A DNA stretch of 53,242 nucleotides, taken from the sequence record KY608966. One strand, 5' to 3'. Within the stretch, counting starts at the first letter, position 1; every line of letters starts with the position of its first letter. Both the position numbers and the translations under genes were made by a program. A model generated the notes under the pieces. It saw only the letters and a program-made list of their open reading frames with translations, was not told where the DNA came from and did no database searches. Of the stretch, positions 1 through 43,999 are shown in pieces. This DNA comes from Escherichia phage CF2.

Positions 1-306
1 AAAAAAATTTACGCCGGCGAAAAATAATAAAAAACCGGATTGATAAATAAATCTGTAGACGTTTACACGACCTTTATATAGATGTTATAATAACTATCTA
101 AAGTCCAGCAAAGGTATTGTAATGAATATACAACAGGAAGTACAAGCTGAATTTGATTATGTTGATGGCATGTTGTATCGTAAACATAGCCACGGTAACG
201 TCAAGCAAGGCGATAAATTTGGTACCGTAGTACCAGCAGGATACATTGAAGGCTTTTTCAAAAATAAGAAGACGTCTTTGCACGTTCTTGTCTGGCAATG
301 GCACAA
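1..306. repeat. Terminal direct repeat, left copy (same as 52937..53242)
   Basis: Bases 1-306 read identically at 52937-53242. The repeat covers a promoter and the first 185 nt of the HNH gene. Confidence 0.9.
62..91 (+). promoter_or_regulatory. sigma70-type promoter TTTACA-18-TATAAT (upstream of HNH gene)
   Basis: -35 TTTACA at 62-67 and -10 TATAAT at 86-91. A second copy lies at 52998-53027. Confidence 0.6.
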
Positions 307-622
307 TGGTGAAATACCGGAAGGTTATGTAGTAGACCACAAGGACCGCAATAAACTCAATTGTAAAATTGATAACTTACGCCTTGCTACAGCTAGCCAG
401 AATCAAGCTAATCGTGGGGTTAATTATAATAGTACAACAGGCGTCAAAGGTTTGCAGGTAACAACACAGCGTGGTTATACTTATTATGCTGCTAAGATAA
501 CTGTCAACGGTAAAAGATTGAGAAAAACCTTTAAATATACGGAAGAAGGCAAAGAATTAGCTATTGCCTGGCTTCAAGAACAACGTCAAAAATTACACGG
601 AGAATTTGCTTGTGATAACTAG
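122..622 (+). CDS. HNH homing endonuclease with AP2-like DNA-binding domain
   Basis: 166 aa. HNH core 'GYVVDHKDRNKLNCKIDNLRLATASQNQAN', then an AP2-like segment 'GVKGL..YYAAKITVNGKRLRKTFKYTEEGKELA'. Confidence 0.8.
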   Translation: MNIQQEVQAEFDYVDGMLYRKHSHGNVKQGDKFGTVVPAGYIEGFFKNKKTSLHVLVWQWHNGEIPEGYVVDHKDRNKLNCKIDNLRLATASQNQANRGVNYNSTTGVKGLQVTTQRGYTYYAAKITVNGKRLRKTFKYTEEGKELAIAWLQEQRQKLHGEFACDN

Positions 623-4937: not shown

Positions 4938-5423
4938 ATGAAAATTGTTCAATTAGAGCCATATCCGCCTCAATTGGCTATCGTTTGCAGCGAAAAAGAG
5001 CACGAAGAGCTCCAAAAACTGATGGATTTGCCTGATTTTGGCAACTGGAATGACCGGGAAACACGTAATGCATCTACCTTTACATTCTCTCGCGTTAACT
5101 ATCCGTACCTGTTAATCGTCGTCGAACTGTACCACCCGGACGACCTGAAGTACAACACCATTTCCCACGAAGGCATTCACGTAATGTCATCGCTGATGAA
5201 CTATGTAGGGCTTAAATACGACCCAGAAAACGATGAATGGTACGCATATCAGCATGATTTCATCGTAAATGCCATTTGTAAGGCCCATGACGAGTATATA
5301 GAGCGCCAAAAAACGCCAAAAACTAAGCCAAAAATCGAAACAGGTAACCATCCTGCTATACTGCCACAAGACGTAATGAACTCGCTTTTGACTGACACTA
5401 CTGGGGACTTTTTAGGTGATTAA
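4938..5423 (+). CDS. HExxH-motif protein (putative small Zn-metallopeptidase-like)
   Basis: 'SHEGIHV' motif. ATG 4938 is the likely start, although the frame is open from GTG 4926. This is the first gene of the rightward operon. Confidence 0.6.
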   Translation: MKIVQLEPYPPQLAIVCSEKEHEELQKLMDLPDFGNWNDRETRNASTFTFSRVNYPYLLIVVELYHPDDLKYNTISHEGIHVMSSLMNYVGLKYDPENDEWYAYQHDFIVNAICKAHDEYIERQKTPKTKPKIETGNHPAILPQDVMNSLLTDTTGDFLGD

Positions 5424-6090
5424 TATAATCTTCGCAATGGGCCAAAATGGGGAATTCGGGTTGTCCCCGGAGTTTATGAAGCATCAGGTTGACTCGTGTA
5501 AGACCATGGAAGAGGTCCGTGCGCTTCCTAAATCGGGTCTACCCTGGAAATGTCCGTCAGACATGCTCTTTTTCAGGACTATGACTAATTCAGTTGCGAC
5601 AGAACCAGGCTATAATGCATATCAGCAACTACGTGGACAGTTCCCAAATGACCAGTTGCGAAACATGATAGCAGATGTAACGGTAAAAATGGTAGGGCAT
5701 AGTGTATTGTTAGCCGGTCGTAACACGTATATGACTATGAGTCTGCCTATGTCAGCCCACAGAATACTGCTGCCGGTATCTCGCCAGATTATGGCTTCAG
5801 AAGGCTACAATAATTTGGGTGAGATGGCAGCAGACCTTGAATCCAGAGGTACTGACGTCTGGATTGTAGGTGGTGCCGAATTGATACTTTCGGCCCTTGA
5901 AGAGCATGCAAAAGACTTACTCCGTATCGACAACATGTTTATCAGTACAATCAAGCAATCAGGTCCAAGTGATATTTTAATGGATCGTAGCAAATTAATG
6001 ATGTACATTGATAGCGACTTCACATATAATGATGAATATGTTGATAACAAACAAGTTCTGATACAACGGTATAGGAGTTTACACAAATGA
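5416..6090 (+). CDS. Dihydrofolate-reductase-like protein with insertions
   Basis: 'MINIIFAM', 'LPWKCPSDMLFFRTMT', 'LLAGRNTY' and 'VWIVGGAEL' parallel FolA 'MISLIAAL', 'MPWNLPADLAWFKRNT', 'VIMGRHTW' and 'MVIGGGRV'. Confidence 0.65.
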   Translation: MINIIFAMGQNGEFGLSPEFMKHQVDSCKTMEEVRALPKSGLPWKCPSDMLFFRTMTNSVATEPGYNAYQQLRGQFPNDQLRNMIADVTVKMVGHSVLLAGRNTYMTMSLPMSAHRILLPVSRQIMASEGYNNLGEMAADLESRGTDVWIVGGAELILSALEEHAKDLLRIDNMFISTIKQSGPSDILMDRSKLMMYIDSDFTYNDEYVDNKQVLIQRYRSLHK

Positions 6091-6593
6091 ACATCATAAT
6101 CGAGGGTCCCGATAATGCAGGAAAAAGTACACTTATTGAGTTCCTTAAATCTCGTACTGGCCGCAATGTTATTCATAATACTGTTGATAAGGACCCCGAA
6201 TCGGTCATGGCTAAACAGGCCAAAGAAAACGCGTTGGAAGGCGATTGCATTTATGATCGTAGCGCTGTTATATCTGAGTATATCTATTGCCTGGTTCTTC
6301 AACGTACGCCTGTCATCAATATTAATGTATCACATGTAGCAGATATGTGCGACAACGCCATCGTTATCTTTTGTATGCCGCCTGTTGAAAAGGTACTGGC
6401 AACTACAAAAGACGAAATGCCTGGTGTTGTGGAAAATCTTGAGGCGTTATACAATCAGTATGACAACCTCATTGACGAGCTGGTTATGATGAGTAAGCAG
6501 TTCTTCATCTATGACTGGACTGTTGAAGAAGACGGTCCTGAAGCAGTTCTAGAATACATCAACGAACGTATTAATAAGGAGTGGAACAAATGA
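6087..6593 (+). CDS. P-loop dNMP kinase (thymidylate-kinase-like)
   Basis: Walker A 'IEGPDNAGKST' and Tmk-like 'YDRSAVISEY'. Coupled to the upstream gene by an ATGA overlap. Confidence 0.7.
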   Translation: MNIIIEGPDNAGKSTLIEFLKSRTGRNVIHNTVDKDPESVMAKQAKENALEGDCIYDRSAVISEYIYCLVLQRTPVININVSHVADMCDNAIVIFCMPPVEKVLATTKDEMPGVVENLEALYNQYDNLIDELVMMSKQFFIYDWTVEEDGPEAVLEYINERINKEWNK

Positions 6594-34607: not shown

Positions 34608-36575
34608 TTAGTGTGCCTCTGCCCAGTTACTTTCTATCTTAGCATCAGTAAGAACAGGCACACGAAGCGGTAACACAGTTTCCATGACCCGTACGAAATC
34701 ATAGAATCCATCTTCTGCTTGCTTACCAGACGGTAGAGAGAAGTTAAGCTCATCGTGTACAGTCAGGCGAGGTACGCCAATAACGTCAAAGTAACCGTCT
34801 TCATACCCTTTCAGCATTGCAGACTTCATCTGGTCTGCTGACGACCCTTGCAGCACTCGGTTGATTGCCTTGTGGGTGTCTGCCAGTTTAATGTTCGGAC
34901 CGTACTCCTGACGTGCTTCTTCAAATGGCAAAGGCATCTTACCGAATCCACCACGCTTTGGAACCCATTTGTTGAACCATGTCTTCCGGCCCATAAAGGT
35001 TTCTACGTACCCCTGGCTATAACATAAATCTTCATAATGCTTCATGGTAGCACCAATGAATGGTGCACCCTGATGATACGCTTTCAGAACAGGTTCCGCT
35101 TCTTCAGGCGTCATTGCTAACTTACGGGCAAGAGCATTAAGCATCATGCCATACAACAAACCAAAGTTAATGGTCTTAGCCGGTTTACGCTCTATAACGT
35201 GACCTGAGGCTTCCTTGATAATATCGACCATAACATTGTGGTAATCTGCTTCCGGGTTAGCCGCGAAAATTGCTCGTAACTCATCAGCGCCCGGGCCGAC
35301 TGCAAAATGCGCCATGAATCGATATTCAATTTGGGCGTAGTCTGCTGATCCCCATCGGTGTCCGACATCCGGTACGAAACAAGCACGAAGGAGTGGTCCC
35401 AGTATTTTGTGTCGAGACGGTATATTCTGCAGATTAGGGTCAGATGAGCTAAACCGACCACTAACGGTTCCACCGTCATCACCGCGCATTTGATGGAATT
35501 GACCGTGAAGGAAGCCATTTGTATTCATCCCCAATATATAGCCACGAATAAACGTGGACTGGATTTTCTCATAAGACTTAATCTCAGACACCAGTTCCGC
35601 GAACGGATGGTGCAAGCCTGCTAAGAAGTCTGCCGTAAACGACGGATTGCCCGCCGCTGTTCTGAAGTACTCCAGACCTAAATGGTCAAATGCAAGAGCT
35701 AAGTCCGGACCTGAGTTAACGTTAATGTTAAAGCCAATCTGGTCTTTAATCTGCTGGTGCATTTTCCTTATTTCAGCGCTAAGCGTATCATCCGCTTCTT
35801 TTGCCTTGTCAAGGTCAACACGCACACCCGCAAAACGCATCTTAAGCATTAATGGAATGAGCTTGCACTCCATATAGAATACGTCTGTTAAACACCAGCG
35901 ACTTAACAAAGGCCACTGGGCTTTGATAATGTGTATTGGTAAGTCGGCGTCAGATTCAGCATAGTAACCCACAAGACGAGGAGGTGTTTTGTAGATGTAC
36001 TTTCTGGCTTCACCTGTTGGCTTACAGCCATAAGCATCTGAAATCCATTGGTACATCTCGGCTGAGTCTTTACCTTCGCCTACATACTTTCGTCCAAGTC
36101 CTTCAAGTGCAACACGCGCGCCTGGGTCAAGTAATGCTTCCGCGAATTGTACATCCATGCACAATCCTTTAACTTCCACGCCTTCTGCTGCAAGCCAGCC
36201 CAAGTCATATGTGATGTTAGCACCGACTTTAACTTGGTTAGGTCGCGAGAGTTCGAGCCGAAGCCAACCAAGTACTTCCTCAGCTGGAAGGTTATCCTCT
36301 TCGCCGAGCTCGTGTCTGATTGGGTAGTAAGCTTTGAAGCCGTTGTCCGTAGCGATACTAACTCCAACGATATGACCCTCCCTCCTGGCCCAACCACTAC
36401 CATTTGTATCCATCCCTGGGTCGTATGTTTCACAATCAAGACCGATAATCTTTGCAGAAGACAAGTCCGGGTAATGCGCGCGCGGCCGCCATCCAGTATC
36501 CCTGACGTACGGTATAGGACGGTTGATAGGTTTAACATTCTTTGCACCTTCGAAGCTATCGAATAAAAAGCTCAT
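34608..36575 (-). CDS. Family A DNA polymerase with 3'-5' exonuclease domain
   Basis: Exo I 'IGLDCETYD', motif A 'ADYAQIEYRFMAH', motif B 'KTINFGLLYGM' and motif C 'TVHDEL'. Confidence 0.92.
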   Translation of the reverse strand: MSFLFDSFEGAKNVKPINRPIPYVRDTGWRPRAHYPDLSSAKIIGLDCETYDPGMDTNGSGWARREGHIVGVSIATDNGFKAYYPIRHELGEEDNLPAEEVLGWLRLELSRPNQVKVGANITYDLGWLAAEGVEVKGLCMDVQFAEALLDPGARVALEGLGRKYVGEGKDSAEMYQWISDAYGCKPTGEARKYIYKTPPRLVGYYAESDADLPIHIIKAQWPLLSRWCLTDVFYMECKLIPLMLKMRFAGVRVDLDKAKEADDTLSAEIRKMHQQIKDQIGFNINVNSGPDLALAFDHLGLEYFRTAAGNPSFTADFLAGLHHPFAELVSEIKSYEKIQSTFIRGYILGMNTNGFLHGQFHQMRGDDGGTVSGRFSSSDPNLQNIPSRHKILGPLLRACFVPDVGHRWGSADYAQIEYRFMAHFAVGPGADELRAIFAANPEADYHNVMVDIIKEASGHVIERKPAKTINFGLLYGMMLNALARKLAMTPEEAEPVLKAYHQGAPFIGATMKHYEDLCYSQGYVETFMGRKTWFNKWVPKRGGFGKMPLPFEEARQEYGPNIKLADTHKAINRVLQGSSADQMKSAMLKGYEDGYFDVIGVPRLTVHDELNFSLPSGKQAEDGFYDFVRVMETVLPLRVPVLTDAKIESNWAEAH

Positions 36576-37570
36576 CAGTCCCCTCTCACATACGCAATTA
36601 CAACTGTACGAGTTGAGTTTTCCATTTTGAGCGCCTGACTACCCAGTCCTATTCTTTCCATGCCTTTAGCCAGTTTACTCATCTGACTAATAACACAGTT
36701 GAACGGTTTACTAAACTTAGTCGACTGGAACTTAATGTCGACGGACATCTTTGGAATAATCTTATCTGGTAAGTCTGCCTTTGCAGTTGACTCGCCTGTT
36801 ATCTCCAGAATAGCCTGACCTTCGTCGTACCCAGTAAGCTGGTCCATGACTTCCAGGAACTCAGGAGTGATGGCCTGCATATCCATTTCCATATTGAAGA
36901 ACTTCGATACGTCTGGCCATTTGGCTGCTAGTACCGGAGCATCCATCTGTACACCATCCGCAAAGCCGAAGAACATCTGGCCGCGGGCGTAACCTACACT
37001 TGTGGGTTCCATCTTCAGCTTAACCAGAGCCTCAAGCATTGGTTTGGCTATGGCACATTCAAATTCAAAATCTACATTCAACTTCTCGCGTATCATATAC
37101 TTACCGTTAGTTGCGTAAGCATAACCATCGCGCAGAAGTAAAGATGTTGCCCATATCTGCGGTGCTTCGTTAGGTACCCACTTGGCTAAGGCGGTTAATA
37201 CCGGGAGTAATTCGCCATGTGCTGAATACCAGTTGTTAACTGTAGCAAGCGGCGGTAATGGTTCATTAAGCGCTTGCATTCTTGTTTTAAGTACGCCTGC
37301 TGTGACTGTGAGGTTTCCAGCGGCTGTAATGTTAAAAGTAATCTGTTCAGTTCTTGCCGCATTAACGGCCTTACGAAATGATTCAGCATCCACTTGCAGG
37401 TCTGGGAATCCTTTACATGGCGCTCGTAGTAATACGTTCTTGTAGTATGAATGGATTGTTTCGTTTGCAATCCATATTTTACCCATAAGACCGCTATCAG
37501 TATACTTGATGGGACGAGCTTGTTGAACGGCAGTCTGTATTTGTTTGGTGTCATAGTTAAACTTGCTCAT
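36575..37570 (-). CDS. Putative sliding-clamp (DnaN/beta-like) protein
   Basis: 331 aa. By-eye collinearity with E. coli beta: 'ATNGKYM' with 'ATDGHRL', 'KWPDVSKFF' with 'RFPDYRRVL', and a similar N-terminus and C-terminal strand. Stop and start overlap the polymerase gene. Confidence 0.4.
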   Translation of the reverse strand: MSKFNYDTKQIQTAVQQARPIKYTDSGLMGKIWIANETIHSYYKNVLLRAPCKGFPDLQVDAESFRKAVNAARTEQITFNITAAGNLTVTAGVLKTRMQALNEPLPPLATVNNWYSAHGELLPVLTALAKWVPNEAPQIWATSLLLRDGYAYATNGKYMIREKLNVDFEFECAIAKPMLEALVKLKMEPTSVGYARGQMFFGFADGVQMDAPVLAAKWPDVSKFFNMEMDMQAITPEFLEVMDQLTGYDEGQAILEITGESTAKADLPDKIIPKMSVDIKFQSTKFSKPFNCVISQMSKLAKGMERIGLGSQALKMENSTRTVVIAYVRGD

Positions 37571-37593
37571 AATATAACGGGGCCGAAGCCCCG
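37571..37593 (-). terminator. cUUCGg-tetraloop hairpin (attenuator or RNA stabiliser)
   Basis: The minus sense reads cggggc-UUCG-gccccg followed by 'ttatatt'. The U-tract is weak. Confidence 0.45.
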
Positions 37594-37600
37594 CTCCATC

Positions 37601-38485
37601 TTATACGGCCATTTGGAGTTTGATGTTCGGCATTGGTTTGTACTTCTCAACCATTGGCGCAACATCGGCAGGAGTGAAGTCAAATACTGACACGTCGTAA
37701 ATCGCGTTAATGTCAGGACGGCCTTCAAAGTTAGTGTCCAGGGTAGAATCAGAATTGCTTACGATACGTTGCAGGAAAATCTTTGCCGCGTCGATATGAT
37801 TCTGATAGATGTGATAATCACCCAGCGTAACAGTCATGTCGCCAACACCAGTGCCCAGCTCAGCAGCAATGGTAATCTGCAACATCTGATGAAGCAGGAT
37901 GTCATGTGGCAGACCAAGGATAACGTCCGCACTACGCATATGGAACATCAGCTCTAATTCATTACGGTTGTTAATGAACAGCTGAAAACCATGGTAACAA
38001 GGCGGAAGGGCCATGGCGTCCATCTCTTGTGGGTTCCATGCCGTAATGTATGCCCGGCGGTCAGTAGGCTTAACCTTCAACGTTTCAATAACGTCTTTAA
38101 GCTGGTTAGTAAGAACACCATTCTTATAGAAAGGCTTAACCCATTGTACGCCGTATACAGGACCTAAGTCACGGTTGTCTGGTGTACCCCAACGTTTGTT
38201 TGCGTCTTGCAGGTTACCTTCCCACCAGTTGCAGCCAAAGCCTTTGAGCGTGTCGACGTTTGAAATGCCGTTTATAAAGCAATAGAGCTCAGCAGCAACA
38301 GCTTTGATGTTAACAGGTTTAAACACAGGCACCATCAGTTTGTTGTCGTTGAAAGCCAGCTTAAATGCTGTACCAAAACAACGGCGGGTACCAACACCTG
38401 TACGGTCTACAACATCCTCACCTTTACGCAGGATAAAAGAAATGATGTCGCTGTAAAGAGAATCGATAGTGCTGTATGTTTTCAT
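37601..38485 (-). CDS. Thymidylate-synthase-family enzyme with Asp at the ThyA Asn177 position (predicted dCMP-specific methylase or hydroxymethylase)
   Basis: 'DLGPVYGVQW', 'DRRAYITAWN', catalytic 'ALPPCY' and 'GDYHIYQNH' are ThyA-like. 'HMRSADVILGLPHD' aligns without gaps to ThyA 'YQRSCDVFLGLPFN' and T4 gp42 'NMRSNDVVFGFRND'. Confidence 0.75.
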   Translation of the reverse strand: MKTYSTIDSLYSDIISFILRKGEDVVDRTGVGTRRCFGTAFKLAFNDNKLMVPVFKPVNIKAVAAELYCFINGISNVDTLKGFGCNWWEGNLQDANKRWGTPDNRDLGPVYGVQWVKPFYKNGVLTNQLKDVIETLKVKPTDRRAYITAWNPQEMDAMALPPCYHGFQLFINNRNELELMFHMRSADVILGLPHDILLHQMLQITIAAELGTGVGDMTVTLGDYHIYQNHIDAAKIFLQRIVSNSDSTLDTNFEGRPDINAIYDVSVFDFTPADVAPMVEKYKPMPNIKLQMAV

Positions 38486-39078
38486 TAAAACAGTTCCTTT
38501 TGAGCCGGGTTAACGTGTGCGTCGATGATTGCCTGGATGTCAGGTGCTTTCCATCCCTCAGGCTTAACAATATCCTGACCGGACTTATGCTTGCTGTTGC
38601 TTGCATCAGGCTTAGCGCGTTCTTTCGCCATGTTAGCAGCCTGTACCGCATCCCATGCTGCGTCAAGTGGCCAGTTGTTGTTTGCACACCAGGTAATCAG
38701 GTGGATAATTAACTGGGCCAGACGGTCGCAATGAGTGTCTTCAGTATCCTTAACGTATACAATAAGGCCATCAGCATCGAAACGGTCCATAAATCCGCAT
38801 GGCGTAGTTAACAGAATCGGATACTCAAATTCGTTGGTGAACCATGCGGTCTGGTCATACAGGTATAACGTACCTGCAGCAATGTAAATTAAATCTACAA
38901 TACCGTCTAAGAAGCCAGCTTTGTCGCCGTCCTTCTTAGCTTGTTTAATTTCTTCCATCTCCTCAATAAGACGGTCGTAACGAAGCTTGAACTCAGGTTT
39001 ACCGCCTTGACTAACAGGCTTGAGGTCAAACTTCTCATGAAAAGCGGTAACGCCTGCAGCAATTTTACTGAATCGCAT
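38485..39078 (-). CDS. MazG-like nucleotide pyrophosphohydrolase
   Basis: 'RLIEEMEEIKQA..FLDGIVDLIYIAAG' (the EExxE...D..D pattern). AAGGAG lies 7 nt upstream. Confidence 0.65.
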   Translation of the reverse strand: MRFSKIAAGVTAFHEKFDLKPVSQGGKPEFKLRYDRLIEEMEEIKQAKKDGDKAGFLDGIVDLIYIAAGTLYLYDQTAWFTNEFEYPILLTTPCGFMDRFDADGLIVYVKDTEDTHCDRLAQLIIHLITWCANNNWPLDAAWDAVQAANMAKERAKPDASNSKHKSGQDIVKPEGWKAPDIQAIIDAHVNPAQKELF

Positions 39079-39463
39079 TTCGTAACTCCTTACAAACAGT
39101 TTCGATAAACTTACGTTTAATTTCTGTAGACCAGATAATATGACGAGCCTGTTCTAAAGTGTCCCAACGTTCTTTACCCACAGGAAAGGGAACAATGAAA
39201 AGGCCGGTACGGGATATGCGCTTGATAAACGGGAATTTACAGCGCATGGTTGTTTCAAACTTGATAAAGTTTGTTTGCACATCGCGTGTAAACTTGACCT
39301 TATCAAATTCATGTTCAAGAGTTTGAGCAATGTTGCATACTTCCTGGAAAGAAGATGCAGGCAAGTAATCTTCGCGGCCGACGGTGTTCACGTAGTCGAT
39401 TTGGCCTTCTAGCCGAAGTATCCAAATCCTGTAATAAGCTTCAGCAACACGTTGTAGGTTCAT
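39065..39463 (-). CDS. Hypothetical protein
   Basis: 132-aa ORF, first gene downstream of the promoter at 39490-39518. Confidence 0.55.
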   Translation of the reverse strand: MNLQRVAEAYYRIWILRLEGQIDYVNTVGREDYLPASSFQEVCNIAQTLEHEFDKVKFTRDVQTNFIKFETTMRCKFPFIKRISRTGLFIVPFPVGKERWDTLEQARHIIWSTEIKRKFIETVCKELRNAIQ

Positions 39464-39489: not shown

Positions 39490-39518
39490 ATTATACCACA
39501 TCACTCTCTAGTGGTAAA
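39490..39518 (-). promoter_or_regulatory. sigma70-type promoter TTTACC-17-(TGg)TATAAT
   Basis: The minus strand reads 'gctTTTACCactagagagtgatgTGgTATAAT'. Confidence 0.7.
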
Positions 39519-39537: not shown

Positions 39538-39573
39538 TAAAAATAAAAAGGACCAGCGTTAACTGGTCCTTTT
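39538..39573 (-). terminator. Strong rho-independent terminator ending the structured RNA locus (bidirectional shape)
   Basis: Stem aggaccag/ctggtcct (39549-39556/39563-39570). The minus-sense downstream run is 'tttttattttt'. Confidence 0.85.
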
Positions 39574-40140: not shown

Positions 40141-40608
40141 TTATTCAGCAACTTCTTCGTTGTCGCCTTCGATCGCGCCAGCCAGTTTAGCAGCTTCAGC
40201 TTTAGCAGCTTCTGCTTTCTGGCGAGCTTTTTCAGCTTTCTCTTCAGCTTTGCGAATCTGCTCAGCAGCTTTCGCTTCGGCTTTTTCAGCTTTGATGCGA
40301 GCACGCTCTTCAGCTTTACGCTGTTTTTCAGCGGCTTTAGCAGCATCGCGTTCTGCTTTAGCGGTATCAACACGCTTAGCCAGAACTTTACCAGTGGCTT
40401 TACGCCAGTAGGTCAGCTGGGAAGAAACAGTACCACGGGACATTTCGGTAGTGGCAACAACTTCGTCCATAACGTCAGAGCTGGACTTGCCTTCTTCATG
40501 GGCTTTATCAGCCAGGTCCCATACGTAACGTGCGCCAGTACCAGCTGCCGGATACAGTACGCCGTTAACTTCTTCTTTACCAGTTACAAAAGTCAGTTTC
40601 TCACTCAT
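40141..40608 (-). CDS. Putative DNA-binding protein with Ala/Lys/Glu-rich (histone H1 / KfrA-like) tail
   Basis: 155 aa from ATG 40608; the upstream ATG 40668 lies inside the promoter. The tail reads 'AKAERDAAKAAEKQRKAEERARIKAEKAEAKAAEQIRKAEEKAEKARQKAEAAKAEAAK'. Confidence 0.55.
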   Translation of the reverse strand: MSEKLTFVTGKEEVNGVLYPAAGTGARYVWDLADKAHEEGKSSSDVMDEVVATTEMSRGTVSSQLTYWRKATGKVLAKRVDTAKAERDAAKAAEKQRKAEERARIKAEKAEAKAAEQIRKAEEKAEKARQKAEAAKAEAAKLAGAIEGDNEEVAE

Positions 40609-40656
40609 AATTTTTTCCTCGTCTACAGGGCTTAATGTTTGTTCGTTACGTGAGTT

Positions 40657-40685
40657 AATATACGTCATTTAAAAGAGTGTGTAAA
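40657..40685 (-). promoter_or_regulatory. sigma70-type promoter TTTACA-17-TATATT
   Basis: The minus strand reads 'gtgTTTACAcactcttttaaatgacgTATATT'. Confidence 0.6.
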
Positions 40686-42651: not shown

Positions 42652-43529
42652 TTATTTTAAGGAAAGTTTAACGGGCTCCTCATCCTGTGGGAAGACATCA
42701 GCAGGGCGATACTCATCGCAAGCCGCTAATTGCTCTTCGATTGTTTCGAGCTCTTTCTGGTGCTTGTTGCAATACCACACTTTGCCCTGAAGCGGTTTAC
42801 TGTAATGGCAGGTTCTGCAGTTCCTGTCGGGCATTGCTCCTTTGTGGCACAAGTGGTGGTACTCACACATTCCTGGCTTGCACTCCCACCAGATAGGCGA
42901 TTCAGAAATCTTCGGCATATCCAAACCAGATTCCGCATATACAACAGCCTCCGCTTTACTCAGTTGTATGTCGCTTTCCAGTAAGTCAATCTCGACCACT
43001 TCAAAATACATCTCGTCGGTGTTCTTGTTGATTGCAATATACACAGCTTGGTTCAGCTTAAGCTTCCGCATGTATACCTGCATCTGGGCGTAGTGTACCG
43101 GCTTACTTGCTTTAACAGACTTGAGCTTGACTAACTCTTTAAACGACTTATCGCCATGCGTCTTGAATTCAGCAAGTGCCCATACGCCTTTGTATTTGAT
43201 CACACAGTCACAAGACCCAGAGAAAATGCCATTGAATTCATGTATGCGCCATTGCTTACCAGTCTTAGGATTGACGTCCAGCACTTCGTCACATACGGAA
43301 CGAAGCCATTTTATAATTCTGCTTTCTTCAAGGTTACCGCGTTCAAACAGACGAAGTTGCTTAGCTGTAAACTTCTCCTTGAACGACCAATGCAGAACGT
43401 GCCAAAGATAGCGATAGCAGTTGTGTCCTATCTGCGATGCTCCAAGATGCCCGCGTCGTTCTTCTCTTTCGTGGGCTTCGACTATCTTGATGTCAATACG
43501 TTTCTGCAGGTCGTCAAACGGACTGGACA
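42652..43529 (-). CDS. PD-(D/E)XK exonuclease, Cas4/YqaJ-like with Cys cluster
   Basis: 292 aa from ATG 43529, with GAGGAG upstream. Contains 'GASQIGHNCYRYLW', 'CDCV..ALAEFKTH' (D..ExK) and C-terminal 'CKPGMCEYHHLC..CRTC'. Confidence 0.7.
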
Positions 43530-43999
43530 TTGTTAAACTCCTCAACACTGAATTCATCGTACACAATATTATGTGCCCACAAATGAGCGACGGCATTTGC
43601 CATGCTATCCTTCCATTTGGATTGTGAAGCTGTATGTGCCAATGCAACTACACGTACCAGGTTAAGGTTGGCTATCAGCATGTCAGCACAATGTTCGCAC
43701 GGCGGGTAGGTTATGTAGATGGTAACAGGGCCTAAAGAAGGAGTGTCTAACTCACTCCTTATGTTAGCTAAGGTGTTTATCTCGCTATGAATAGTTAGAG
43801 CGTTCTTGAGGCTATTAGGCACTATTCTTATAGAGTCTAACTGCGTAGGCAGACCGTTATATCCAGTGGAAATAATACGCTTGTTCTGGTCCACAAGAAC
43901 GCTACCGACTTGACGTTTCGGGTCCTTCGACCAGCTTGCAACTTCACAAGCTATGCGCATAAACCGCCTGTCCCACTTGTCCATCTTCTTCTTTTGCAT
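43514..43999 (-). CDS. dCMP deaminase (zinc cytidine/deoxycytidylate deaminase fold)
   Basis: 'HSEINTLAN' (HxE) and 'PCEHCADML' (PCxxC). Confidence 0.85.
   Translation of the reverse strand: MQKKKMDKWDRRFMRIACEVASWSKDPKRQVGSVLVDQNKRIISTGYNGLPTQLDSIRIVPNSLKNALTIHSEINTLANIRSELDTPSLGPVTIYITYPPCEHCADMLIANLNLVRVVALAHTASQSKWKDSMANAVAHLWAHNIVYDEFSVEEFNNVQSV

Follow-up and report, generated by a model that had tools for sequence, protein, structure and literature searches.

Relatives of thymidylate synthase known or predicted to act on deoxycytidylate

Canonical thymidylate synthase (TS; EC 2.1.1.45), represented by E. coli ThyA and T4 td, acts on deoxyuridylate (dUMP); its Asn177 reads O4 and N3-H of the uracil ring, and its His147 belongs to a water network that leads to O4. 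Phage members of the same family that act on deoxycytidylate (dCMP) include the dCMP hydroxymethylase gp42 of phage T4 (EC 2.1.2.8) and the deoxycytidylate 5-methyltransferase of Xanthomonas phage XP12 (EC 2.1.1.54). The present analysis concerns the ThyA-family gene at 37601..38485 on the minus strand of the Escherichia phage CF2 genome (sequence record KY608966), of which the whole stretch of 53,242 nucleotides is called the window. Judged from its sequence, this gene probably encodes a folate-dependent deoxycytidylate C5-methyltransferase, and the DNA of the phage probably carries 5-methylcytosine (5mC), the most likely base, in place of cytosine.

In XP12, a siphovirus with 68% GC, 5mC fully replaces cytosine (Pamexvirus/Bosavirus group). 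The module of this group, seen in XP12 and AXL1, comprises genes for dihydrofolate reductase (DHFR), dCMP deaminase, a protein labelled 'thymidylate synthase', nucleotide pyrophosphohydrolase, helicase, Pol I, and a Cas4-like nuclease (PMC9206674; XP12 record). The XP12 enzyme makes 5-methyl-dCMP (5mdCMP) (PMC8670742; bioRxiv 10.1101/2024.12.05.627091). For XP12, formation of thymidylate from 5-methyl-deoxycytidine (5-methyl-dC) nucleotides was proposed from isotope labelling together with a 5-methyl-dCTP deaminase activity. The window phage, an enterobacterial myovirus with 46% GC, resembles this system in the Asp at the column of Asn177, in the companion genes for DHFR, dCMP deaminase, and nucleotide pyrophosphohydrolase that both phages possess, and in the position of the TS homologue, which adjoins a MazG-like hydrolase and lies near PolA. 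Homology between the two phages extends over the TS homologues (28%, E 1.6e-23), the hydrolases (38%, over a part), the deaminases (34%), and the DHFRs (29%, a weak match). The two systems differ in that the identity of the TS homologues is only about 26–29%, and the window enzyme keeps Leu at the position of L143 and a C-terminal MAV, whereas XP12 has Asn and another tail. Moreover, the DHFR and kinase genes of the window lie approximately 21–32 kb from the TS homologue, the gene order is different, and the base of the window phage is predicted from genes.

T4 gp42 also has Asp at the specificity position, and the T4 enzymes gp56 (dCTPase), gp1 (kinase), and cd (deaminase) have conceptual parallels in the window. 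However, the identity of gp42 to the window enzyme is about 21–23%, and the latter shows none of the signatures Asp145, Ser94, and Val85 and ends in a C-terminal tail of the kind that is missing from gp42. Furthermore, no glucosyltransferases were found in the window, and it encodes a DHFR without a separate TS. The reading of this DNA made earlier from its letters (the sequence-only reading) had described a T4-like enzyme set; the functional parallels to gp56, gp1, and cd stand, but XP12 is the better analogy. Canonical ThyA shares with the window enzyme the fold, the dimer-type active-site arginines, the catalytic Cys, L143, and the C-terminal tail, with an identity of about 33–36%. In the window enzyme, Asn177 is replaced by Asp and His147 by Tyr, with further replacements of Phe176 by His, of Ile79 by Trp, and of Val262 by Met, and the predicted substrate is dCMP, not dUMP. 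Overall, the window enzyme is closer in sequence to true TS than to the XP12 enzyme or gp42.

The 'deaminase-associated' TS homologues of MetaGPA and IMG-VR are another described group. MetaGPA found positions 177 and 147 to be the most associated with modified-cytosine contigs (PMC8670742). TS mutants of the N177D/N229D type lose their preference for dUMP and act as dCMP methylases (PMC8670742; bioRxiv 10.1101/2024.12.05.627091). Yang et al. (2024) showed that the deaminase-associated TS homologues make 5mdCMP, that the linked deaminases can prefer 5mC, and that the Pfam domains Thymidylat_synt, dCMP_cyt_deam_1/MafB19-deam, PRA-PH, DNA_pol_A, and DNA_pol_A_exo1 are typical around deaminases on modified-cytosine contigs (bioRxiv 10.1101/2024.12.05.627091). 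The window shares the diagnostic residues 177 and 147 and this neighborhood of domains, with the difference that its deaminase gene is approximately 5 kb from the TS homologue and does not adjoin it. The searchable text of Yang et al. (2021) and Yang et al. (2024) holds no mention of Salmonella, 'Escherichia phage', or BP63.

The ThyA-family gene of the window

The window is an essentially complete Rosemountvirus genome of 53.2 kb with 45.9% GC, and in the 4-kb region compared, its identity to Salmonella phage BP63 is 98%. The open reading frame (ORF) at 37601..38485 on the minus strand encodes 294 amino acids, while the plus-strand reading of the same interval is riddled with stops. The protein matches PF00303 (Thymidylat_synt) over residues 11–294 with an E-value of 1.7e-62 and 211 bits against a cut-off of 24.3, which places it in the TS superfamily, and it matches phrog_160 at 4e-80. 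Its top sequence matches in the Protein Data Bank (PDB) are thymidylate synthases throughout, at approximately 1e-40 (phmmer). The ThyA-like motifs DLGPVYGVQW, DRRAYITAWN, ALPPCY, and GDYHIYQNH, from which the earlier reading had recognized the family, were all found in the minus-strand translation. The equivalent of the catalytic Cys146 (E. coli numbering) is Cys163, and equivalents of the phosphate- and folate-binding residues R21, R126/127, R166, E58, Y94, D169, H207, and Y209 are present. The AlphaFold2 (AF2) model has the TS fold with a mean confidence (pLDDT) of 94.5, and its best 50 PDB matches are all canonical TS at a TM score of approximately 0.82. No other ThyA-family gene was found in the 53-kb genome (tblastn). 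On the PF00303 match, the residue table, and the AF2 model, the protein is predicted to be a deoxycytidylate 5-methyltransferase.

According to the record of the Rosemountvirus fHy-Eco03, liquid chromatography–tandem mass spectrometry (LC-MS/MS) of particle preparations yielded peptides of several replication proteins, among them the TS homologue, the MazG-like protein, PolA, and the helicase. This detection shows that these proteins are expressed, and the label 'virion-associated' in that record probably reflects lysate carry-over.

The specificity residue Asp195 and its clade

The codon GAC at 37901..37903 (minus strand) encodes Asp195, which stands in the column of Asn177 of E. coli ThyA, the pyrimidine-specificity residue. 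The Asp of LGLPHD (segment MRSADVILGLPHD) falls in this column in three independent alignments, and none of them has a gap from the RS-D-LG-P motif to the H-x-Y motif. One was a phmmer alignment to the thymidylate synthases of the PDB, with top posterior probabilities; another was a MAFFT alignment with the authentic E. coli ThyA, XP12 enzyme, and T4 gp42, each taken from its own record; and the remaining one comprised 55 sequences. The placement thus comes from sequence and profile alignments, and the structure comparison gave a match at the level of the fold without a residue-level superposition. The distance from Asp195 to Tyr227 equals that from Asn177 to Tyr209 (32 residues), and both the XP12 enzyme and T4 gp42, which reads NMRSNDVVFGFRND here, have Asp in the column. 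The sequence-only reading had claimed the ungapped Asp, the 32-residue spacing to H-x-Y, and the Asp of gp42, and the alignments uphold all three. Thus, the Asn177 typical of canonical dUMP-specific TS is replaced in the window protein, and so is His147, for which Tyr164 is found in the window protein and in the entire clade described below.

A search of 5.8 billion proteins yielded a clade of 31 cluster representatives with 48–98% identity, mostly on phage-sized contigs of 45–54 kb. The clade is sharply set off, as the next scores belong to ordinary TS at no more than 37% identity, and in an exhaustive HMMER search it falls as a whole into one 50% representative. Asp occupies the N177 column in 29 of the 31 representatives, down to 48% identity, and Asn occupies it in all 20 cellular TS sampled. 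On this sequence evidence, Asp195 is a conserved feature and no chance event or sequencing error. Besides Asp, the changes H147Y, F176H, I79W, D81E, and V262M run through the clade. Among the 58 closest representatives from outside the clade that were examined, 22 likewise combine Asp177 and L143 with a TS-type tail, and the nearest of these 22 lies in the same gene module; the clade is therefore one branch of a widespread group of predicted dCMP methylases. In a neighbor-joining (NJ) tree computed without support values, the clade groups with cellular TS and not with XP12 or gp42, and XP12 falls outside the cellular TS and the clade together. This topology hints at an origin separate from that of XP12 by convergent switching from Asn to Asp. 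Since the tree carries no support values, this independent origin and the revertant status of two Asn-type members (see below) are indications only.

Methyl versus hydroxymethyl transfer

The change from Asn to Asp at the position that reads the pyrimidine is proposed to make the enzyme bind dCMP instead of dUMP, and the residues around the folate bear on what would then be transferred. From the ternary complex of T4 dCMP hydroxymethylase (dCH), the signature of a hydroxymethylase was given as an Asp three residues ahead of the catalytic Cys, the motif Ser94-x-Tyr96, replacement of Trp83 by Val, and a missing C-terminal tail, which in TS closes off the folate site; dihydrofolate (DHF) arises only in the reductive, TS-type reaction (PMC6400193). 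Lee et al. (2026) found that a bulky hydrophobic residue at L143 predicts methyl transfer, while Asp or Glu predicts hydroxymethyl or hydroxyl transfer (PMC13326640).

The active-site stretch L160-P-P-C163-Y164 of the window protein (37994..38008, minus strand; from the alignments) has Leu160 at the L143 position three residues ahead of the catalytic Cys163, followed by Tyr164 in place of His147. An acidic residue is thus absent where T4-type hydroxymethylases have one, GPVYG stands in place of the Ser-x-Tyr motif, and the C-terminal tail is retained. The tail reads IKLQMAV (IKAPVAI in E. coli), and its end, Q-M-A-V followed by the stop (37601..37612, minus strand), is of the TS type, which closes the folate site so that hydride can be transferred and which gp42 does not have (alignments; PMC6400193). 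With neither an acidic residue at L143 nor an open folate site, the protein has the features expected for hydride transfer. The RB69-type flavin-dependent 5-hydroxy-dCMP synthase combines N177D with L143E, of which the window protein has the Asp but Leu at 143. Taken together, Leu160, GPVYG, the tail, and the fold argue for the active site of a TS that reads cytosine, and since the whole hydride-transfer apparatus is kept, the predicted products are 5-methyl-dCMP and DHF.

Restriction behavior of related phages

Kasurinen et al. (2021) tried 10 restriction enzymes, with 3–14 sites per enzyme, on DNA of fHy-Eco03, a Rosemountvirus, and ScaI alone cut; an unknown modification was proposed by the authors, who judged the known methylation sensitivities insufficient to explain the digests (PMC8145870). 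In the sister genus Loughboroughvirus, Gambino et al. (2020) found that the DNA of phage S144 was cut only by SspI and PacI, which have AT-only sites; a cytosine modification was suggested, but the responsible gene was not found, and the TS homologue was taken as an ordinary TS (PMC7432712). In a comparison of the genomes, identities of 61% and 73.5% to the window protein were found for the TS homologues of these two relatives, which share its D177/Y147/L143/MAV signature and adjoin a MazG-like gene, with a deaminase nearby. In the tables of Flodman et al. (2020), the 5mC DNA of XP12 is cut partially by ScaI and resists NcoI, NotI, SphI, AflII, EagI, and Sau3AI as well as SmaI, XhoI, KasI, SacII, and PspOMI, whereas the 5-hydroxymethylcytosine (5hmC) DNA of T4gt is blocked for ScaI (PMC7653180). 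All eight named fHy-Eco03 enzymes, and all S144 enzymes for which there are XP12 data, behave as on XP12 5mC DNA. Compared with these tables, 5mC therefore fits every named enzyme, and 5hmC fits less well. In the literature that could be searched, no paper was found that ties these restriction results to the TS homologue; the papers on LPSEYT, swi3, SPLA, SPHG1, ETEC, and the Durham Collection held nothing relevant on DNA modification for this phage group.

A side observation concerns the restriction sites of the window itself. GATC is extremely depleted: a maximal-order Markov model predicts 158 occurrences, and the window has 29 (z = −13). GATATC does not occur against 11.5 expected, while the other palindromes containing C or G are near expectation. 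The window further holds 141 CCWGG sites and 12 sites for ScaI. Depletion of GATC is common in enterobacterial phages and has been linked to Dam and MutH. Since MboI and DpnII cut XP12 5mC DNA and EcoRV cuts 5hmC T4gt DNA, a C5 modification would leave GATC and GATATC unprotected (PMC7653180).

Accessory enzymes and proposed pathway

The MazG-like protein (38485..39078, minus strand; 197 amino acids) is an all-alpha NTP pyrophosphohydrolase and a candidate dCTPase, with matches to PRA-PH (1.9e-7) and phrog_671 (1e-24). The dCMP deaminase-family protein (43514..43999, minus strand; 161 amino acids), whose gene lies approximately 5 kb upstream of the TS homologue, matches PF00383 (3.3e-21) and phrog_174 (7e-37), and its zinc motifs HSE (HxE) and PCEHC (PCxxC) are intact. 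It is a candidate 5-methyl-dCMP/dCTP deaminase that makes thymidylate or, alternatively, an ordinary dCMP deaminase, by analogy; its substrate may be 5-methyl-dCMP, with thymidylate (dTMP) as the product, and not dCMP, which would yield dUMP. On the plus strand, a divergent DHFR-like protein of 224 amino acids (5416..6090) matches PF00186 with 30.6 bits against a cut-off of 25 and phrog_316 at 1.9e-26, and all of its PDB matches are DHFRs. These three proteins had been named by the sequence-only reading on their translations, and the profile searches agree. Its fourth accessory enzyme, a Tmk-like kinase at 6087..6593 (plus strand; 168 amino acids), fared less evenly. The protein matches phrog_761, 'thymidylate kinase', at 1.7e-26, but its Pfam matches score below the cut-off and extend over the P-loop only, and there is no significant PDB match. 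The assignment as a kinase is weak, and the protein is described as a P-loop (d)NMP kinase-like protein and candidate 5-methyl-dCMP kinase.

Neither a second TS, ThyX, glycosyltransferase, DNA methyltransferase, nor dioxygenase was found in the window, by tblastn and by Pfam and PHROG scans of the non-structural ORFs, which covered those under 90 amino acids in part; that no glycosyltransferase was recognizable had also been the earlier impression. Genes for 7-deazaguanine, a guanine modification that was considered as a source of the restriction resistance, were likewise not seen, and no dedicated profile search was made for them. The earlier argument from DHFR to a reductive one-carbon transfer is supported, as the window has a divergent DHFR without a second TS, and DHF is made only by the TS-type reaction.

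We infer each step of the following pathway. The MazG-like pyrophosphohydrolase, which is co-translated with the TS homologue, would remove dCTP (deoxycytidine triphosphate) and supply dCMP. The Asp195 enzyme would methylate dCMP with methylene-tetrahydrofolate (CH2-THF) as donor of both carbon and hydride (dCMP + CH2-THF -> 5-methyl-dCMP + DHF), and the DHFR-like protein would return DHF to tetrahydrofolate. The P-loop kinase and the host NDP kinase would convert 5-methyl-dCMP into 5-methyl-dCTP, which the phage PolA would incorporate, so that cytosine would be replaced by 5mC and the resulting DNA would be protected from most type II restriction enzymes. The deaminase may turn a part of the 5-methyl-dC nucleotide pool into thymidylate, as proposed for XP12, or alternatively supply dUMP to the host ThyA. 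A thymidylate supply through deamination of 5-methyl-dC nucleotides would explain the lack of a second, dUMP-specific TS, and 5mC in place of cytosine would account for the resistance of related phages' DNA to nearly every restriction enzyme. The residues, the fold, the gene set, and the restriction data of relatives thus support the proposal of the sequence-only reading that cytosine is replaced by a 5-modified cytosine, with 5-methyl-dC of the XP12 type favored.

Asn-type relatives within the clade

Two metagenomic members of the clade, P0013 (L011 1–1571) and P0020 (L012), with the accessions SRR13494277 and SRR14236019, have Asn in the specificity column and are nested among the Asp-type members in the NJ tree. 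Their key codon is AAC as against GAC, which is one transition. The MazG-like gene upstream of P0013 encodes a protein that is 25% identical to that of the window and has lost the motifs EExxE...D and AANMAK...KPEGW, which the MazG-like proteins of the window, XP12, and the metagenomic contig L006 have in common. The pattern suggests that the enzyme reverted to an ordinary TS while the partner dCTPase decayed, and it looks like co-loss of the pathway, as seen in the sequence of one contig. That cytosine replacement was switched off again inside the phage family is more likely than an undescribed C5 derivative. The apparent Asn-type revertant with its decayed MazG-like neighbor counts as a natural control in favor of a methylase in the Asp-type phages, in which thymidylate would come through deamination of 5-methyl-dC nucleotides and not from dUMP.

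Competing explanations

The textbook alternative is an ordinary TS that boosts dTTP together with the deaminase, DHFR, and Tmk-like kinase, with some other cause behind the restriction resistance of the relatives. The best sequence and fold matches are indeed true TS, all 61 phage records found in GenBank and RefSeq label the gene 'thymidylate synthase', two members of the clade have Asn, and the accessory genes fit a route from dCMP through dUMP and dTMP to dTDP, as the authors of the S144 study argued (PMC7432712). This explanation is very improbable, given that Asn177 is invariant in the 20 cellular TS and gives way to Asp in 29 of the 31 clade representatives with His147 changed alongside, and that real TS carrying this mutation lose the preference for dUMP and methylate dCMP. 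Neither the scans of the window nor the S144 authors found any other candidate modification gene (PMC7432712), and modified-cytosine contigs typically show such a close link to a MazG-like pyrophosphohydrolase (bioRxiv 10.1101/2024.12.05.627091). If the prediction is right, the label on the 61 records is a systematic annotation error. Several points nevertheless weigh against a dCMP methylase and 5mC. The protein passes the TIGR03284 thymidylate-synthase equivalog (172 bits against a cut-off of 108), which also speaks for the ordinary enzyme, and it fails all the NF0024xx equivalogs (for instance, 187 against 327); profile scores of this kind cannot register a switch in one specificity residue. 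The gene, the dCMP deaminase, the DHFR, and the Tmk-like kinase also make up the textbook dTMP pathway, and analogy is the sole basis for the functions assigned to the MazG-like protein, the kinase, and the deaminase. A sequence rule for calling the deaminase 5mC-selective was considered, but none exists, the trait being polyphyletic. The restriction data were obtained on two relatives and not on the window phage, whose TS homologue shares 61% and 73.5% identity with theirs, and the distinction of 5mC from 5hmC by ScaI depends on a single restriction enzyme and on 'partial' cleavage of XP12 DNA. Genome-wide avoidance of palindromes (observed/expected 0.88 for 6-mers containing C or G and 0.95 for AT-only ones) is similar in the XP12 control and hence uninformative. 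The XP12 enzyme itself has Asn, and thus no hydrophobic residue, in the L143 column, so the published rule for this position is not absolute. Finally, the base in the DNA of the phage group and the activity of the enzyme are both predicted from sequence.

Among enzymes specific for dCMP, a hydroxymethylase of the T4 gp42 kind, whose DNA would hold 5hmC or a derivative of it made by unrecognized genes, is unlikely. Gp42 has the same Asp in the N177 column, the candidate dCTPase and dNMP kinase parallel T4 gp56 and gp1, many proteins of the window phage are without known function, and 5hmC DNA would likewise resist most of the enzymes tried on S144 and fHy-Eco03. However, the published hydroxymethylase signatures are all absent (Leu and not Asp or Glu, PVY and not Ser-x-Tyr, tail kept), the identity to gp42 is 21% while the fold matches canonical TS, a DHFR is encoded although no second TS would need it, no glycosyltransferase or other tailoring enzyme was found in the Pfam and PHROG scans, and ScaI cuts the DNA of fHy-Eco03 and not the 5hmC DNA of T4gt. 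It is somewhat harder still to favor a dCMP-specific enzyme with a final base that is neither plain 5mC nor 5hmC, whether through partial replacement or through a new C5 adduct formed after hydride transfer or in its place. Such an undescribed derivative, improbable as it is, could arise if one of the several conserved proteins of unknown function in the replication module acted on the enzyme product or on the exocyclic-methylene intermediate; in the judgment of the fHy-Eco03 authors, their digests were not accounted for by known methylation sensitivities (PMC8145870), and ThyA homologues with unexpected chemistry, for instance flavin-dependent 5-hydroxylation, were recently described (PMC13326640). 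Yet the digests of fHy-Eco03 and S144 match those of fully 5mC-substituted XP12 DNA wherever they can be compared, the active site is TS-like at every hydride-transfer position, and the 5-hydroxylase type has Glu at L143, where the window enzyme has Leu (PMC13326640).

Significance of the assignment

The Asn-to-Asp principle at position 177 is already established for TS homologues of phages, and a dCMP methylase in this group therefore extends known biology and is not of a new kind. In the search for phages against Salmonella and E. coli, for biocontrol and for therapy, Rosemountviruses and Loughboroughviruses belong to those isolated most frequently. If true, the assignment would resolve two published puzzles of an unidentified modification, those of fHy-Eco03 and S144, and it predicts approximately 23 mol% 5-methyl-dC and no dC. 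The phages would then be expected to be sensitive to McrBC and to GmrSD/BrxU-like modification-dependent systems, which bears on host range and cocktail design, and the sequencing, cloning, and engineering of such genomes would be affected. They would further offer a model in enterobacteria, open to genetic work, in which complete 5mC substitution and the proposed deaminase route from 5mC to thymidylate can be studied, as well as a possible source of 5mC-selective deaminases.

Operon and gene order

The TS homologue is the third gene of a minus-strand operon in which a 132-amino-acid protein, the MazG-like protein, the TS homologue, a hairpin, a clamp-like protein, and PolA follow each other. 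A sigma-70-like promoter (39490..39518, minus strand), TTTACC-17-TATAAT with an upstream TG, stands ahead of the operon, and the BP63 record has an annotated promoter at the matching position. The first gene (39065..39463, minus strand) encodes the 132-amino-acid protein of unknown function (phrog_36727) and overlaps the MazG-like start by 14 nt; it was found in S144 and fHy-Eco03, with no match in the metagenomic contigs L006 and L008. The coupling of the next two genes is tight, the MazG-like stop overlapping the start of the TS homologue (TAATG). Between the stop of the TS homologue and the start of the clamp gene lies a GC-rich stem-loop, GCGGGGC-TTCG-GCCCCGT (37576..37595, minus strand), whose stem is upheld by compensatory changes in S144 and fHy-Eco03 and which is absent in distant relatives, where the genes abut. 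It could act as an attenuator, a processing site, or an element of mRNA stability. The clamp-like DNA polymerase processivity factor (36575..37570, minus strand) is recognized by phrog_947 (1.8e-46) and synteny, and an overlapping TGATG joins its gene to that of the family A DNA polymerase (34608..36575, minus strand), identified by the BP63 annotation and by DNA_pol_A in relatives; this polymerase would need to accept the modified dCTP as a substrate.

The order deaminase, nuclease, helicase, (others), MazG-like protein, TS homologue with Asp, clamp, and PolA is kept in the metagenomic contigs L006, L008, and L013, whose TS enzymes are 53%, 48%, and 44% identical to that of the window, respectively. 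Directly upstream of the operon promoter-like site, a strong terminator-like hairpin with a 12-bp stem and a T-run (39546–39573, minus strand) marks a boundary of transcription units. Between the MazG-TS operon and the helicase lies a gene for a 175-amino-acid protein (40141–40668, minus strand), of which the C-terminal half is of low complexity and rich in Lys, Ala, and Glu, and the N-terminal part is 64–66% identical in L006 and L008; at the equivalent place between hydrolase and helicase, XP12 has a gene annotated as 'TolA protein'. The first sizeable ORF of the window (122–622, plus strand) has an HNH_3 endonuclease domain (2.8e-20), and an annotated HNH homing endonuclease gene of fHy-Eco03 (L009 13583–14131, minus strand) sits as an insertion between the genes for its exonuclease and its dCMP deaminase. 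Homing endonucleases therefore seem to be mobile in this phage group.

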